Source of the DNA: Escherichia phage vB_EcoM_ULIM3 | Reading direction: 5' to 3' (one strand) | Sequence record: OQ850289 | DNA: 64,000 nt | Shown here: piece by piece, positions 1-17,490 of the stretch | How positions within the stretch are numbered: the first letter of the stretch is position 1 | How the letters are laid out: every line of letters starts with the position of its first letter | Notes under the pieces: model-generated | What the model was told of the DNA's origin: nothing | Databases searched by the model: none | Seen by the model: only the letters and a program-made list of their open reading frames with translations | Program-made: the position numbers and the translations under genes

Positions 1-34
1 AAAAAAAAAAAAAAGGCTCCCGAAGGAGCCTATG
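1..34 (-). terminator. intrinsic terminator (minus strand) 3' of endolysin
   Basis: A14 on plus strand then ggctcc-cgaa-ggagcc; on minus strand a hairpin followed by a U-tract. Confidence 0.7.
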
Positions 35-40
35 AAGATA

Positions 41-505
41 TTACTTTGGATATACACTGTCAAGATAAATGTTAGCTTCCATTCTACGTCTGTTTTTCAG
101 GCCGTTTGAAGTGACCTTCTCACCTTTGACTGTAATCTTGTTCCACCACTGCATAGCTTCTGCACAACCTACCTTATTACCATCATTGTGGCGCTTGATA
201 AATGTAGAGTCCTGCATAGCTGTGATGCCAATGTTGTATGTTTCACTTACAAGTGCATCAAACTCGTTCTGAGAAGTTGGAACCTTGATGGCTTTGTTCA
301 CTGCTGCAACGAACTTTTCAACATCTGCGAGAAGATACTGTTCAGCTTGTTCAGCGGTAATCTTCATACCCATCTTAACAGGTTTGCCAGCAATACGGAT
401 TGTCCCATACCCAATTGTGGGGATTCCAGCAGAATCTTCGTAAGCCTCCAGCTTGAGACCTTCAAAGAACTTAATAGCTTCTAAACCTTTTCTTGAGAGT
501 TGCAT
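41..505 (-). CDS. endolysin, T4-lysozyme-like (GH24) muramidase
   Basis: 154 aa; N-terminal EG..L.AY.D..GIPTIGYG signature of T4-type lysozymes; terminator hairpin immediately 3'. Confidence 0.85.
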   Translation of the reverse strand: MQLSRKGLEAIKFFEGLKLEAYEDSAGIPTIGYGTIRIAGKPVKMGMKITAEQAEQYLLADVEKFVAAVNKAIKVPTSQNEFDALVSETYNIGITAMQDSTFIKRHNDGNKVGCAEAMQWWNKITVKGEKVTSNGLKNRRRMEANIYLDSVYPK

Positions 506-1641
506 TATGCCCCTCCTGCTGGGTTAACTGTAACTGTTGCTGCATTAGATGTTACAGAGCCACCTGCACCAGTCACTACGCAAGTGTAGCTTCCTGTATC
601 AGTAGTGGTTGCACCTTCTTTGGTGTAAGTTGCAGTTGTTGCGTCTGGGATGTCTTCCTCACCCTTCTTCCACTGATAACCTGTTGCACCTGTTGCTACA
701 ACGTTGAGTGTCAATGTCTCACCTTCGGTGATTTCCTGATTGGTTGGTTGTTGAGTGATTACCGGAAGAGCATTAACAGTAACTGTCGCTGCATTAGAAG
801 TAACTGTTGTACCACCTGCACCAGTAACTACACAGGTATATGAACCAGCATCAGCAGGGGCTGCTTTAGCTTTCGTGTAAGTTGCACCAGTTGCACTAGG
901 GATGTTCACATTGTCTTTCTTCCATTGGTAACCTGTTGCACCTGTTGCAGCCACTTCCAAGTTGATATTTCCACCCTCATTGATGGTCTGACTAGAAGGT
1001 TGCTGTGTAATCACAGGTAGTGCATTAACAGTAACTGTTGCCGCGTCTGAAGTAACACTTGTCCCAGCCTCTCCAGATACAACACAAGTATATGAACCAG
1101 CATCAGAAGGTACTACAGACTGCTTTGTGTAGGTTGCAGATGTGGCGCTAGTGATATCCTCACCATCTTTTTTCCATTGATATCCAGTGGCATTAGTTGC
1201 AATAACGCTTAGGTTAAGTGTACCACCTTCATTTACTGTTTGATTGGTTGGTTGCTGAGTGATTGCTGGTGGCTTGATAGCATCCTTCAACTTAGCATTC
1301 AACATTGAGAATGGTTTAACTCTTGCCAGCCATTCACAATAAACTGTATCAACGTCTTTACCATTGATAATTGCATATTGTAAGTCCATGAAGAAGTCAG
1401 AAGTTCTCATTTGAGCACCAACGCTGTAAAGCAACTCATCACTAAATGGGACTTTGTAGTCTGGTTTGTAGTCAAACTTCTCAACTTCTGCGATATCAGC
1501 TTCAGGCCAATATGAGCTATAGGTGAGTGGTAAAATAGCCTCTTGATATGTTCTAAAATCATATCTCTTACCAGCCTTTACATTTGCAACGAAGCCCTTC
1601 ACAAACTCTTTGAAGTCTGGGTAAGTCTTTGCTTTAATCAT
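505..1641 (-). CDS. Ig-like repeat protein (N-terminal domain plus three tandem ~87-aa Ig-like repeats)
   Basis: three repeats each containing GYQWKKD...SYTCVV (I-set/Big-like); ATGA start/stop overlap with upstream gene. Confidence 0.6.
   Translation of the reverse strand: MIKAKTYPDFKEFVKGFVANVKAGKRYDFRTYQEAILPLTYSSYWPEADIAEVEKFDYKPDYKVPFSDELLYSVGAQMRTSDFFMDLQYAIINGKDVDTVYCEWLARVKPFSMLNAKLKDAIKPPAITQQPTNQTVNEGGTLNLSVIATNATGYQWKKDGEDITSATSATYTKQSVVPSDAGSYTCVVSGEAGTSVTSDAATVTVNALPVITQQPSSQTINEGGNINLEVAATGATGYQWKKDNVNIPSATGATYTKAKAAPADAGSYTCVVTGAGGTTVTSNAATVTVNALPVITQQPTNQEITEGETLTLNVVATGATGYQWKKGEEDIPDATTATYTKEGATTTDTGSYTCVVTGAGGSVTSNAATVTVNPAGGA
508..1312 (-). repeat. three tandem ~260-bp imperfect repeats encoding Ig-like domains
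   Basis: repeated peptide blocks ITQQP..Q.(I/V)NEGG..NL.V.ATGATGYQWKKD...ATYTK....DAGSYTCVV.G.GT.VTS.AATVTVN. Confidence 0.6.
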
Positions 1642-2009
1642 TTCTTTTTAGCCTCTAAATGTGCGTTTAGTCTAAAATAACCTTTGTGATGCGGAGATAC
1701 ATCACCAACAACAATGCCTTTAACCTTATAACCTTTACCAATTACATACTGGATATCCATAAGGAATCTTCCAAGTCCAACAATATGGAACATTGGATAT
1801 AATAGGTTCTCAGAATCTGGAATATTGATTTCAGGTTTGTAGGTGCGTTGTTCGATTGTTGGTGTAATATCTTCTTCAGGCCATTTACTGAGTCTCCATG
1901 TCAAAGGTGTTGGGATAACATCATTAAGGTTGTACCTTTCACCATTTCGCACGGAATTGATATAGGATTGTAGGAAGCAATAAAAGTCTTTTGCACTCTT
2001 AGCTTTCAT
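1638..2009 (-). CDS. hypothetical protein, paralogous to N-terminal domain of 505-1641
   Basis: 123 aa; shares W-PE-DI...YKP...LLY...MD-QY-I-GK pattern with the first ~110 aa of the adjacent Ig-repeat protein. Confidence 0.5.
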   Translation of the reverse strand: MKAKSAKDFYCFLQSYINSVRNGERYNLNDVIPTPLTWRLSKWPEEDITPTIEQRTYKPEINIPDSENLLYPMFHIVGLGRFLMDIQYVIGKGYKVKGIVVGDVSPHHKGYFRLNAHLEAKKK

Positions 2010-2056
2010 TAAATATCCTTATAAATAGTTAAAGGGGCATCAGCCCCTATTCACAC

Positions 2057-2647
2057 TTAAGCTTTGGTCTTAAGTAGGTTCTTAAGTTTTTTAAGATTCA
2101 TACTCTCATCAAACTTAAAACCAAATCCATTGACATAATCAATGAACTCGGATTTCTTACTGAGTGACAATGCGTAACTCATATCAAAGTTCTTACTTGT
2201 TTCTGCGTCTGGACTAGAGTTCACATCAAATGAAATTTCTGTAGGCTCTTGCTTACTTTTTCTCATATTATCAACCAACAAACATGTATAGTTTGCTGGA
2301 TAGAAATTTACACTACCATCAACGTAGCTGTACTTATTATTATGGATAAGGTTTGAAAATACCTTAAGGAATGTTTCTGAGTCGTGGCAAACAAGTTTGA
2401 ATTGGCTGCTCTCTCCAAGCGCAACTAATGAGTACGGACTTTCACTATCAAAGTCATAATTTGGATTCGATGCCGTTACTGTTACACGCATCAAATTATT
2501 AGCAATAGTCTTCTGTTTAAAAGAATTTTGAACATAGTGAAGACCTCTATCACACTGATTGACTAGCTCTTTAAGTAGGTCATTTGCATATGGCGAATTA
2601 ATTGATACAGAGCCATCACTATTGTAATTAAAACTTACTGTTAACAT
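2057..2647 (-). CDS. hypothetical protein
   Basis: 196-aa ORF in minus-strand operon; no motif recognised. Confidence 0.45.
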   Translation of the reverse strand: MLTVSFNYNSDGSVSINSPYANDLLKELVNQCDRGLHYVQNSFKQKTIANNLMRVTVTASNPNYDFDSESPYSLVALGESSQFKLVCHDSETFLKVFSNLIHNNKYSYVDGSVNFYPANYTCLLVDNMRKSKQEPTEISFDVNSSPDAETSKNFDMSYALSLSKKSEFIDYVNGFGFKFDESMNLKKLKNLLKTKA

Positions 2648-2874
2648 TTTTCAGTTCTCCTGCGATTTATAATTTTGCTGCAATAGAGAAACGAAGTAAA
2701 CTCACTGGAAGAAACCATTAAGTGTTGTTCACTAGATTGAGCCATTGCCCTGAAATACATTCCAGTCAAAGCATCATAGTGACTATTCTTTCCAATTGAG
2801 GTTATATAGCCATGACTCTTTGCAGTTTGATATAAATCTATAATATCTGCGATTTCTAATTGGGAACTACACAT
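2641..2874 (-). CDS. hypothetical protein
   Basis: 77-aa ORF, overlaps stop of next gene. Confidence 0.35.
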   Translation of the reverse strand: MCSSQLEIADIIDLYQTAKSHGYITSIGKNSHYDALTGMYFRAMAQSSEQHLMVSSSEFTSFLYCSKIINRRRTEKC

Positions 2875-3018
2875 AGATAATCCTCTTGTCTTCTGTAATT
2901 TTGAAAGAACAGGTACAGACCAATTTCAGAGGACGAATAGTAGATTAATTCTACCCTTTTTGATTCCTTACAGTGATTGGTATTCTTACCTTTCTTCGGT
3001 TTATTTGATTTTCTCATT
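2856..3018 (-). CDS. small basic protein (start moved to internal ATG with GGAG RBS)
   Basis: ATG at 3018 preceded by AAAGGAG 6 nt upstream; MRKSNKPKKGK... lysine-rich N-terminus. Confidence 0.3.
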
Positions 3019-3115
3019 AAGTCTCCTTTGTAGAACAAGGCAGACCTACAGCTTTAAGTAAGATGGTACAGTAATCCATACAACAAGTCAAGAACTATTG
3101 CAAGTTAAAAAAGTT

Positions 3116-3157
3116 GTTGACAAAGTACTTGACAAGGTGTAGGCTTATAAATACTTA
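3116..3157 (+). promoter_or_regulatory. tandem TTGACA promoter-like block at divergent junction
   Basis: gttgacaaagtacttgacaaggtgt (3116-3140), near-identical to 44996-45020; TAnnnT -10 candidates downstream. Confidence 0.5.
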
Positions 3158-3266
3158 GAAGATAACTTAAAAGGTTCCTCTAAAAAGGCTATTTAAACAG
3201 ATATCTTTCTGGATATCTATCTTTTATCTTAAAAGCCTTTTAAGAGGTCTTATAAGAGGCATACCA

Positions 3267-3638
3267 ATGAAAAACAGAACAAACAAAGGCCAGTTTAAAA
3301 AAGGCCAGTCTGGAAACCCATCTGGAAGACCGAAAGGCTCACGTAACAAAAGTTCACTCGTAAAAGCTCAACTGACCATTGATAATTCTGCTGAGTTTGC
3401 TGCAAAGTTGTTTGAAGCGATTGTTACAAGGGACGCTGCTAAGCTTGCAGAGTTCGGGTTAAACACAGACGACGTAACCATCAAGAGCATGATTGAGGTC
3501 GGTAAAACTATCATGACTCACTCAGCAGGTGAGATGAAAGCAATTGCAGCAGACACTAAGAAGACTACTGATAACGGCGGTCAGTCTCAGACAGATAACA
3601 AACCAACGTTCTCTGCTGTTGCAACCCTCAAAAAATAA
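3267..3638 (+). CDS. hypothetical protein with N-terminal GNPxGRPKG motif (putative DNA-binding)
   Basis: 123 aa; KGQSGNPSGRPKGSRN motif that I recall from small phage DNA-binding proteins (not verified). Confidence 0.45.
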   Translation: MKNRTNKGQFKKGQSGNPSGRPKGSRNKSSLVKAQLTIDNSAEFAAKLFEAIVTRDAAKLAEFGLNTDDVTIKSMIEVGKTIMTHSAGEMKAIAADTKKTTDNGGQSQTDNKPTFSAVATLKK

Positions 3639-3719: not shown

Positions 3720-5135
3720 ATGAGCGAATTATTTAAACATGCGCACCTTCATGCAGGTCGAACTGAAAATGGTGCTGTAAACCATACTTCATCAATGTCT
3801 GCTCTTGTAGACTTTTACAAAGCTGCTGGTTCAAGCCGTAGCAACGTAGAAATCTTACCAGACCTGTTCTGCAAAGCTTTGCGTGAGGATGTTGATGTCG
3901 CAGTTCGTATTTTGCTTCATATGCGAGATGTACGAGAAGGTATGGGTGAGCGTAAAGCCTTCAGAACTGTTTTGCTTCAAGCGATTGAAGACAAAGTTTT
4001 AGAGCCTACGCAGGTTCTTCGCATTATGGATAAGATTGCAGAACTTGGTCGTTTTGATGACTTCAAAATCTTCGTAGGTACTCGTTTCGAGACAGATGCC
4101 TTCAAACATTTAGAAGCAGCATTACTAGACCCTGCAACAGCAGGTTTGGCGGCTAAGTGGTTACCACGAGTCAAACCACGTCATAAGCAGTTTGTAAAAC
4201 GTTTCTGCAAGTTTGCCAACTTAAGTGAGAAAGAGTACCGCACACTATTGTCTGCACTATCTGATACAGTTGAGCAAAAAATCTCTGCTAATGAGTTTGG
4301 TAAGATTGACTACAGTAAGATTCCTTCACTTGCTGCTGCACGTTACCAAAAACTGTTTAACCGTAAAGATGGAGAACGCTACAAAGCTTACATCGAGTCA
4401 TTATCAAAGGGTGAGGCTAAGATTAATGCTGGTGCTGTTTACCCATACGATGTGATTAAATCTGTTAAGTATGGTAATGCAGATGTTGCTAATGAGCAGT
4501 GGAAAGCACTACCAAACTGGATGGCAGAGGGTGAGAACATTTTGTGTATGACTGATGTCTCAAGCTCAATGTCTTGGGTGAATTTCGGTTCAATCACTGC
4601 TCTTGATATTGGTGTATCTCTTGCACTGTATGTAGCAGAACGCAATACTGGTTGTTTTAAAAATGAGTTAATGGTTTATTCAACAAACCCTCACTTCATC
4701 GAACTGAGTGGTGATTTACGAAACCGTCATCGTCAGGTAATGCGTTATACTGAATATGGTTCAACTAACTTACAAGCAGCTTTTGACCGTATTCTTGAGA
4801 CAGGTAAAAGAAACAACTTGACTCAGAAAGATATGCCAAGTAAGCTTATCATCTTCTCCGATATGGAGTTCAATCAGGTTGATGGAGCTAACGGTCGTAC
4901 AAACTTTGAAGCAATTCAGAGTAAGTACAAAAAAGCTGGATATGAGATGCCACAACTGGTATTCTGGTACTTAGCAAACCGTAATGGTACTTGCGAAGTA
5001 TCTGTTAAGGATAACGGTGTAGCAATGGTATCAGGGTTCTCTCCAGCCACTTTAAAAGCTCTGCTTGGTGGTGAGAAGTTTGACCCAATCAGCGTAATGC
5101 TCAAAGCAGTAATGGTTGACCGTTATATCTGGTAA
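3720..5135 (+). CDS. vWA-domain protein with MIDAS motif; helical N-terminal domain (Ro60/TROVE-like architecture, hypothesis)
   Basis: 471 aa; perfect DxSxS MIDAS (D-V-S-S-S, nt 4549-4563) in C-terminal half; N-terminal RDVREGMGER motif; own promoter at 3651. Confidence 0.65.
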   Translation: MSELFKHAHLHAGRTENGAVNHTSSMSALVDFYKAAGSSRSNVEILPDLFCKALREDVDVAVRILLHMRDVREGMGERKAFRTVLLQAIEDKVLEPTQVLRIMDKIAELGRFDDFKIFVGTRFETDAFKHLEAALLDPATAGLAAKWLPRVKPRHKQFVKRFCKFANLSEKEYRTLLSALSDTVEQKISANEFGKIDYSKIPSLAAARYQKLFNRKDGERYKAYIESLSKGEAKINAGAVYPYDVIKSVKYGNADVANEQWKALPNWMAEGENILCMTDVSSSMSWVNFGSITALDIGVSLALYVAERNTGCFKNELMVYSTNPHFIELSGDLRNRHRQVMRYTEYGSTNLQAAFDRILETGKRNNLTQKDMPSKLIIFSDMEFNQVDGANGRTNFEAIQSKYKKAGYEMPQLVFWYLANRNGTCEVSVKDNGVAMVSGFSPATLKALLGGEKFDPISVMLKAVMVDRYIW

Positions 5136-16386: not shown

Positions 16387-17490
16387 ATGTTGACTAATTC
16401 TGAAAAAAGCAGATTTTTCCTTGCTGACCTGACTGGTGAAGTCCAGTCTATCCCAAATACTTATGGGTATATTTCCAACTTAGGTCTGTTCCGTTCAGCA
16501 CCAATCACCCAAACTACTTTCCTTATGGACTTGACTGATTGGGATGTTAGCTTGCTTGATGCGGTAGACCGTGATAGCCGTAAAGCAGAGACTAGCGCAC
16601 CTGAGCGTGTTCGTCAAATCAGCTTCCCAATGATGTACTTCAAAGAAGTTGAAAGCATCACTCCTGATGAAATTCAGGGTGTACGTCAGCCAGGCACTGC
16701 AAACGAACTGACTACTGAAGCTGTAGTACGTGCTAAGAAGCTGATGAAGATTCGTACCAAGTTCGATATTACTCGTGAGTTCCTGTTTATGCAAGCTCTG
16801 AAGGGTAAAGTTGTTGATGCTCGTGGTACTCTGTATGCTGACCTGTACAAGCAGTTCGACGTTGAGAAGAAAACTGTTTACTTCGACCTTGACAACCCTA
16901 ATGCTGACATCGACGCTTCTATTGAAGAACTGCGTATGCACATGGAAGACGAAGCTAAGACTGGCACTGTAATCAACGGTGAAGAAATTCACGTAGTTGT
17001 TGACCGTGTATTCTTCAGCAAACTGGTTAAGCATCCTAAGATTCGTGACGCTTATCTTGCACAGCAGACTCCGCTGGCTTGGCAACAGATTACTGGTTCT
17101 CTGAGAACTGGTGGTACTGACGGCGTTCAGGCTCACATGAACACCTTCTACTACGGTGGTGTTAAGTTTGTCCAGTACAACGGTAAGTTCAAAGACAAGC
17201 GTGGTAAGGTTCATACTCTGGTGAGCATTGATGGTGCTGGTGCAGAGGTTGGTGTAGGACACGCTTTCCCTAACGTTTCTATGCTTGGTGAAGCAAACAA
17301 CATCTTCGAAGTGGCTTATGGTCCATGTCCTAAGATGGGTTACGCAAATACACTTGGTCAGGAACTGTACGTATTCGAATATGAAAAAGACCGTGACGAA
17401 GGTATTGACTTCGAAGCTCACTCTTACATGCTGCCATACTGTACTCGTCCTCAGTTGCTGGTAGATGTTCGTGCTGACGCTAAAGACTAA
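16387..17490 (+). CDS. major capsid protein
   Basis: 367 aa; highly-expressed-type codon usage; position after protease and decoration genes. Confidence 0.7.
   Translation: MLTNSEKSRFFLADLTGEVQSIPNTYGYISNLGLFRSAPITQTTFLMDLTDWDVSLLDAVDRDSRKAETSAPERVRQISFPMMYFKEVESITPDEIQGVRQPGTANELTTEAVVRAKKLMKIRTKFDITREFLFMQALKGKVVDARGTLYADLYKQFDVEKKTVYFDLDNPNADIDASIEELRMHMEDEAKTGTVINGEEIHVVVDRVFFSKLVKHPKIRDAYLAQQTPLAWQQITGSLRTGGTDGVQAHMNTFYYGGVKFVQYNGKFKDKRGKVHTLVSIDGAGAEVGVGHAFPNVSMLGEANNIFEVAYGPCPKMGYANTLGQELYVFEYEKDRDEGIDFEAHSYMLPYCTRPQLLVDVRADAKD

Follow-up and report, generated by a model that had tools for sequence, protein, structure and literature searches.

A short paralog holding the capsid-binding domain alone adjoins the hexamer decoration gene of a Felix O1-like phage

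A stretch of 64,000 nucleotides from Escherichia phage vB_EcoM_ULIM3 (OQ850289; referred to as the window) was analysed with respect to two adjacent minus-strand genes near its beginning, a long gene (378 amino acids, aa) assigned to a Hoc-like hexamer decoration protein (Hex-Dec) and a short gene (123 aa) related to the capsid-binding domain (CapBD) of the long product. Bases 1-3200 of the window matched 252 phage records, nearly all of them Felix O1-like myophages (Ounavirinae) and the best at 95-96% nucleotide identity, and the source phage is a Felixounavirus, that is, a Felix O1-like myophage. The minus-strand order is the 196-aa gene, the 123-aa gene, the 378-aa gene and a 154-aa lysozyme gene, followed by a terminator-like hairpin. 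Counterparts of these four genes are ORF38, ORF37, ORF36 and ORF35 (ORF, open reading frame) in phage Felix O1 and gp43-gp40 in phage wV8.

The long gene (505..1641, stop codon 505-507) encodes a protein that in phmmer searches of the PDB returned the Hex-Dec of phage Bas63 (9ncf_S, E 6.7e-280) and gp20 of phage Sf14 (9c2d_S, E 4.3e-170), both aligned from residue 1, and that matched the PHROG family phrog_3995 (E 1.4e-211). Residues 1-118 (1288..1641) form the CapBD by alignment to 9ncf_S, with the boundary and the contacts taken from the Sf14 structure (PMC11821841). The window CapBD differs from the modelled 9ncf_S at approximately 3 of 118 residues (~97% identical), and both Arg79 and Arg107 are present, as they are in 8/8 of the Hex-Dec sequences compared. 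Orthology to the solved Bas63 and Sf14 proteins makes this gene an already known one, another family member with three immunoglobulin (Ig)-like repeats, and its identity as the Hoc-like hexamer decoration protein of Ounavirinae is close to certain.

The CapBD, corresponding to the N-terminal ~118 residues, has been observed with cryo-electron microscopy (cryo-EM) as a monomer at the hexamer centre of a T=9 capsid, with Hex-Dec on the 60 pentamer-proximal hexamers only and the 20 true three-fold hexamers devoid of it (PMC12609058, PMC11821841). In Sf14, Arg79 and Arg107 form salt bridges with Asp221 of the major capsid protein, and a shifted geometry of Asp221 was held by the authors to exclude Hex-Dec from the true three-fold hexamers (PMC11821841). 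The Ig-like domains of the Bas63 and Sf14 proteins were flexible and not resolved in the maps (PMC12609058, PMC11821841). The counterpart Felix O1 gp36 was found in virions with 44% coverage (PMC3185647). Carried over from the cryo-EM of these homologues, the window Hex-Dec would be expected to bind at the centres of the pentamer-proximal hexamers. A preliminary description of this DNA had proposed that the Ig-like protein probably decorates the virion, which agrees with the close homologues seen on capsids (PMC12609058, PMC11821841); that the N-terminal domain shared by the two genes is specifically a capsid-binding anchor goes beyond what it had said. Separately, a weak internal repeat was noted within the CapBD between helix 1 (DFKEFVKGFVANVKAGKRYD) and helix 2 (DFFMDLQYAIINGKDVDTVY), which is consistent with the pseudo-two-fold lobes L1 and L2 described for Bas63 and which alone is not significant (hhalign P ~0.003, probability 11%).

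The remainder of the long protein consists of the three Ig-like repeats that had been read from the translation beforehand, and these were recovered by Pfam Ig_3 as three stretches (5.5e-32; also I-set) and by repeat comparison as three 84-aa units with approximately 70% pairwise identity at the protein level. Repeat 1 covers residues 125-208 (1018..1269), repeat 2 residues 209-292 (766..1017) and repeat 3 residues 293-378 (508..765). The repeats were not reported by Tandem Repeats Finder because their nucleotide identity of ~68% is under the threshold of that program. Repeat number ranged from one to four among the relatives, with one in EC6, two in Felix O1, Moogle and REP10, three in the window, wV8 and Sf14, and four in PK6 and Bas63.

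The short gene (1638..2009; phrog_4463) is the counterpart of Felix O1 ORF37, wV8 gp42, Bas63 bas63_0125 and SUSP1 agp126. A duplication of the N-terminal domain of the long protein as the adjacent gene had been proposed from a set of spaced motifs, with a pairwise alignment as the comparison on which the motifs depended, and the alignment supports them: BLASTP gave 36/101 identities (36%, E 2e-17) between residues 2-100 of the 378-aa product and residues 1-99 of the 123-aa product. The two proteins also matched the PHROG families of one another reciprocally (phrog_4463 and phrog_3995, 5e-17 and 3e-15), and phmmer aligned the 123-aa protein to the N-terminal 117 residues of the two CapBD chains in the PDB (4e-12 and 1.6e-11), the best being 9ncf_S residues 3-117. 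Between 23 and 30 columns of the family alignment were invariant in both paralogs, including the motifs WPExDI, YxP, LLY and FxMDxQY. An AlphaFold2 (AF2) model of the 123-aa protein built from 25 family sequences was of moderate confidence, with a predicted local distance difference test (pLDDT) score of 73 and a predicted template modelling (pTM) score of 0.74, and a Foldseek search of the PDB with this model returned 9ncf_S (TM 0.70) and 9c2d_S (TM 0.71) with probability 1.00 and 33-35% identity, all matches beyond these two CapBDs having E > 1.

The short protein terminates 3-5 residues past the CapBD and is without Ig-like domains, and the gene is thus an anchor without cargo. Models covering it are absent from Pfam, NCBIfam and the annotated PHROG families, and NCBIfam has none for the 378-aa protein either. 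A description of the 123-aa paralog was not found in the searchable literature, in which the long gene is already known, and the paralog was neither modelled nor mentioned in the structural papers on Bas63 and Sf14 (PMC12609058, PMC11821841).

The order paralog, Hex-Dec, endolysin was kept in wV8, Felix O1, Moogle, SUSP1, Sf13, EC6, PK6, Bas63 and a distant 87-kb metagenomic contig (L010), and it therefore spans Felixounavirus, Mooglevirus and Suspvirus as well as that contig. The Bas63 paralog (bas63_0125) was 85% identical to that of the window. The two genes of the window overlap by ATGA at 1638..1641 ('tcat' on the plus strand), as had been reported together with translational coupling, and the start/stop overlap was kept in all relatives compared as ATGA, ATGATTAA or TAATG. 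A GAGG Shine-Dalgarno sequence for Hex-Dec (1652..1655) lies within the C-terminal Leu-Glu-Ala codons of the paralog, and the embedded sequence TTAGAGG was kept in Felix O1, wV8, EC6, PK6, Moogle, Sf13 and SUSP1, with CTAGAGG in L010. The neighbouring endolysin (phage lysozyme, 154 aa, 41..505; PF00959 E 3.9e-40; phrog_7) closes the unit, and its ATG shares TAATG at 503-507 with the stop codon of Hex-Dec; its adjacency to the pair, likewise described before, also holds across genera. A programmed -1 frameshift that would fuse the paralog to Hex-Dec was considered, as Hex-Dec is read in the -1 frame and AAAAAG precedes the ATGA by 6 nt, and was rejected because AAAAAG is absent in wV8, Moogle, Sf13, SUSP1 and L010.

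The paralog is under purifying selection. Its ratio of non-synonymous to synonymous substitution rates (dN/dS) was 0.05-0.17 across genera, which resembles that of the endolysin and is approximately 3-fold looser than that of the Hex-Dec CapBD (0.02-0.06). Divergence of the paralog was also faster, with 45% identity between the window and L010 compared with 58% for the Hex-Dec CapBD.

More distant relatives were identified with a profile of both paralogs in an exhaustive hidden Markov model (HMM) search of 1.84 billion representative proteins (E <= 0.001). Word-indexed homologue searches gave close relatives only, and the single-copy relatives needed the exhaustive search. Thirteen hits were obtained, twelve of which had the CapBD, and the weakest (P0106, E 9e-4) was an unrelated repeat protein. 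The more distant relatives had one CapBD gene per locus, and the domain was fused there to Big_2, an I-set Ig domain, a weak Big-like domain or a Lys-rich low-complexity tail. The CapBD thus behaves as a portable capsid anchor. A neighbour-joining tree, which carried no bootstrap values, grouped the paralogs in one clade and the Hex-Dec CapBDs in another with a member from L010 in each, as expected if the gene was duplicated once, ahead of the separation of those lineages. The sequences thus indicate one duplication older than the divergence of Felixounavirus, Mooglevirus, Suspvirus and the distant metagenomic lineage.

The Felix O1 counterparts ORF36 and ORF37 were both assigned to the 60-min class by reverse transcription PCR, together with the portal, sheath and fibre genes. 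The paralog is nevertheless dispensable. In REP10 and Z31 it was a decayed pseudogene with a lost start codon, frameshifts and an internal deletion of ~220 bp. Nineteen of the 252 phage records had no paralog match above 60% identity, which suggests that the paralog is missing or decayed in those phages as well, REP10 and Z31 being the two that were examined. Purifying selection on the Hex-Dec CapBD was strong despite this decay: REP10 and Z31 differ there by 15 synonymous and 2 non-synonymous changes. Both agp126 (paralog) and agp125 (Hex-Dec) were 'Not Fit' in a CRISPRi-ART screen of SUSP1 (PMC11879866 supplement), which is weak evidence because the endolysin was also 'Not Fit'. The short gene is very likely a conserved, selected and non-essential paralog consisting of the capsid-binding domain alone.

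Shortened forms of the long gene were also seen. In Z31 (L003, 2498-2902) the Hex-Dec ORF ends 12 residues past the CapBD at 134 aa and is followed by a separate 55-aa ORF, which, with the paralog a pseudogene in the same phage, would make for an Ig-less Hex-Dec, and a sequencing error is equally possible. Cut-off Hex-Dec forms of 121-149 aa like that of Z31 were present in metagenome assemblies (P0058, P0081, P0088). The record 'Staphylococcus phage SA1' contains a Felix O1-like paralog almost the same as VpaE1 gp40 (99% identity), and this looks like a misattributed or contaminated entry and not a host jump.

Transcription signals were found on both sides of the paralog, Hex-Dec and endolysin genes. 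An intrinsic-terminator-like hairpin with a T-run is located 3' of the endolysin (14..31, minus strand), where it was picked up by a terminator scan and where a terminator is annotated in wV8. A second hairpin, GGGGCTGATGCCCC (2034..2047, minus strand), lies between the 196-aa gene and the paralog; it was not picked up by a simple terminator scan, and wV8 carries a rho-independent terminator annotation at the equivalent position, and the terminator table of Felix O1 contains the identical sequence. This hairpin and the start codon of the paralog are only ~25 nt apart, and the stretch between them gave no sigma-70-like promoter. Transcription of this late three-gene unit could be by read-through or from an unrecognised late promoter.

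Upstream of the second hairpin is the conserved 196-aa gene (2057..2647, minus strand; phrog_4034), which is given as context only. The gene that precedes the lone CapBD gene in a distant relative (L012) is 26% identical to it (E 8e-20), and in this single-copy lineage the CapBD gene is still located between the homologue and a lysozyme gene. Synteny of the 196-aa gene with the CapBD gene even there implies that the three-gene cassette of 196-aa gene, CapBD gene and lysozyme is old. A faint precomputed match of Phage_Inh_N to the upstream gene in L012 was discarded as hmmscan at E <= 1 did not return it; in T4, inh is adjacent to hoc. The SUSP1 counterpart of the 196-aa gene, agp127, was 'Not Fit' in the CRISPRi-ART screen (PMC11879866 supplement).

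Other parts of the window are mentioned briefly. The Hex-Dec gene is located ~15 kb from a candidate major capsid gene (367-aa ORF, 16387-17490), and a 308-aa ORF antisense inside the latter (16495-17421, minus strand) is probably spurious. A 471-aa ORF on the plus strand (3720-5135) has a wV8 counterpart annotated as an RNA-binding protein, with a large tRNA cluster downstream in wV8, and other counterparts are annotated as DUF2828 in Sf13 and match DUF2828/DUF7788 in a distant relative. The adjoining DUF5681 gene (3267-3638) corresponds to SUSP1 agp130, which was 'Fit' in the SUSP1 screen.

As a whole the locus is best explained as a decoration module made up of two genes in a Felix O1-like phage, an explanation that we consider probable. 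In such a module a CapBD monomer of the 378-aa protein would plug the centre of each of the 60 pentamer-proximal hexamers in the T=9 capsid, with Arg79 and Arg107 contributing to its hold on Asp221 of the major capsid protein, and the three flexible Ig-like domains would project outward. The short protein may still target the hexamer centres transiently, weakly or at low occupancy; it would then occupy or compete for them without Ig domains and thereby modulate the location or density of Hex-Dec display, and not be a stable structural component. This role of a transient or low-occupancy binder that modulates decoration is our preferred reading, inferred only tentatively and held to be possible rather than probable. 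A role related to the capsid is favoured by the shared CapBD fold, the late expression class in common with Hex-Dec and the translational coupling. A more specific proposal, that the paralog is a dedicated decoration regulator whose Ig-less CapBD acts on hexamer centres, a capsomer class or a maturation state and so helps to set Hex-Dec on 60 of the 80 hexamers or to tune the number of Ig fibres, is given a low although appreciable likelihood, and we know of no hexamer-centre decoration protein, Hoc and pb10 included, that has been described with a paralogous built-in competitor.

Several observations weigh against a capsid-directed role of the short protein. The equivalent of Arg79 is an invariant Gly78 in all paralogs, and position 107 is His or Gln in 7/8 of them with Arg only in L010. 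The single-copy outgroups do not keep Arg79 either, so that its replacement speaks only weakly for a loss of capsid binding. Reports of virion proteins include the long copy but not the short one. Felix O1 gp37 was not among the virion proteins identified by mass spectrometry (PMC3185647), and the 22 proteins of the VpaE1 virion proteome differ, according to the main text of that report, from the Felix O1 list by gp54, gp58 and gp68 only, so that the VpaE1 paralog (gp40) would not be among them. The 3.1 A capsid map of Bas63 had no density on the hexamers without Hex-Dec (PMC12609058), yet Bas63 encodes the paralog, and the Sf14 map likewise had no density there (PMC11821841).

The same evidence bears on the alternatives. 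The paralog could be a second hexamer decoration protein for the 20 true three-fold hexamers, in the manner of T4 gp24, which would agree with its CapBD fold, its late co-transcription and translational coupling with Hex-Dec, and the exclusion of Hex-Dec from those hexamers by the Asp221 geometry proposed for Sf14 (PMC11821841), and the change of Arg79 to an invariant Gly would even be expected if the binding site differs. However, it is precisely the three-fold hexamers that lacked density in both cryo-EM studies, and the paralog went undetected in the Felix O1 proteome and, as far as the VpaE1 main text lists them, among the VpaE1 virion proteins, although lower-copy proteins such as the portal were found. 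A stable second decoration protein is therefore considered unlikely. Absence from those virion lists would on the other hand suit a non-virion partner or chaperone that caps or solubilises the CapBD of Hex-Dec before it docks on the capsid, as would the tight coupling directly upstream of Hex-Dec and a homologous fold that could associate with the CapBD, whose pseudo-two-fold character was described in Bas63 (PMC12609058). Strong purifying selection on the Hex-Dec CapBD continues in REP10 and Z31 where the paralog is a pseudogene, which argues against an obligate chaperone role, and the distant relatives with a single CapBD gene have no partner at all. Charge complementarity was also tried as a basis for binding either the acidic hexamer centre or Hex-Dec, as the window paralog is basic (isoelectric point 9.3, net charge +4.8) and the Hex-Dec CapBD acidic (-1.5). 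Acidic paralogs in Moogle, Sf13, SUSP1 and L010 led to this idea being dropped, and that the opposite charges are not kept in other genera counts against the chaperone too. On balance we regard the chaperone as improbable.

A lysis accessory such as a holin or spanin-like protein might be looked for two genes upstream of an endolysin, the more so since no holin was identified nearby and none is adjacent to the lysin according to the Felix O1 paper (PMC3185647). This role was rejected as very unlikely, given the full-length homology of the short protein to a soluble capsid-binding domain and the lack, by inspection, of an uncharged hydrophobic stretch of membrane-spanning length; linkage of a CapBD gene to lysozyme is moreover ancestral and holds in the single-copy relatives too. 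That both genes encode tail proteins is given next to no credence. Most database records label the long gene 'tail protein' or 'major tail protein', and phrog_3995 itself carries the first of these names. The reading is already contradicted by the close homologues modelled in capsid hexamer density in two independent cryo-EM structures, the widespread annotation was explicitly called wrong by the Bas63 authors (PMC12609058), and the 'major tail protein' and 'Hoc-like' PHROG matches are confined to the Ig repeats. What likelihood remains falls to some unrelated function acquired by the paralog.

For the long gene the analysis adds nothing new except to confirm that its 'tail protein' label is mistaken. 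In the short gene, the very phages whose capsids have been solved encode a capsid anchor without cargo that is conserved, under selection and expressed late. If the paralog does bind capsids, it would bear on how a decoration protein chooses among quasi-equivalent hexamers, and a natural competitor could lower the occupancy of the CapBD when this domain is used as an engineered display anchor. With one anchor joined variously to Big_2, Ig or Lys-rich tails, the CapBD stands out as a portable module, so far without a Pfam or NCBIfam model.

Several known systems can be compared with the pair. In T4 the major capsid protein gp23 has a vertex-specialised paralog in gp24; the two structural genes lie side by side, and the copy could serve another capsomer class. 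This serves as an analogy only, and it differs from the window pair in that there is no sign of the short copy in the virion. The Ig domain of T5 pb10 (5lxk_A, 8zvi_a) matched residues 215-291 of the window Hex-Dec at 7e-12; pb10 has a single Ig domain, the match was limited to the Ig part and the anchors had no detectable homology to the window CapBD.

T4 Hoc is, like the window Hex-Dec, a monomeric and non-essential protein at the hexamer centre with an outward string of Ig-like domains, and we know of no anchor-only Hoc paralog in T4. The capsid-binding domain of Hoc is C-terminal and follows the Ig domains, whereas the anchor of the window Hex-Dec is N-terminal. 'Hoc-like head decoration' PHROG families matched the Ig part of the long protein only (residues ~130-375), and in the PHROG and PDB searches no Hoc match covered residues 1-120. 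The Hoc domain and the Bas63 CapBD are topologically distinct and without sequence similarity (PMC12609058).

The closest systems are the Hex-Dec of Bas63 (9ncf chain S) and gp20 of Sf14 (9c2d/9c3a chain S). The window short gene has the CapBD fold in common with both and differs from them in having neither Ig domains nor Arg79. The long gene has the same N-terminal anchor followed by Ig repeats, of which there are four in Bas63 and three in Sf14 as in the window, and it shares with both the genomic position upstream of the endolysin.

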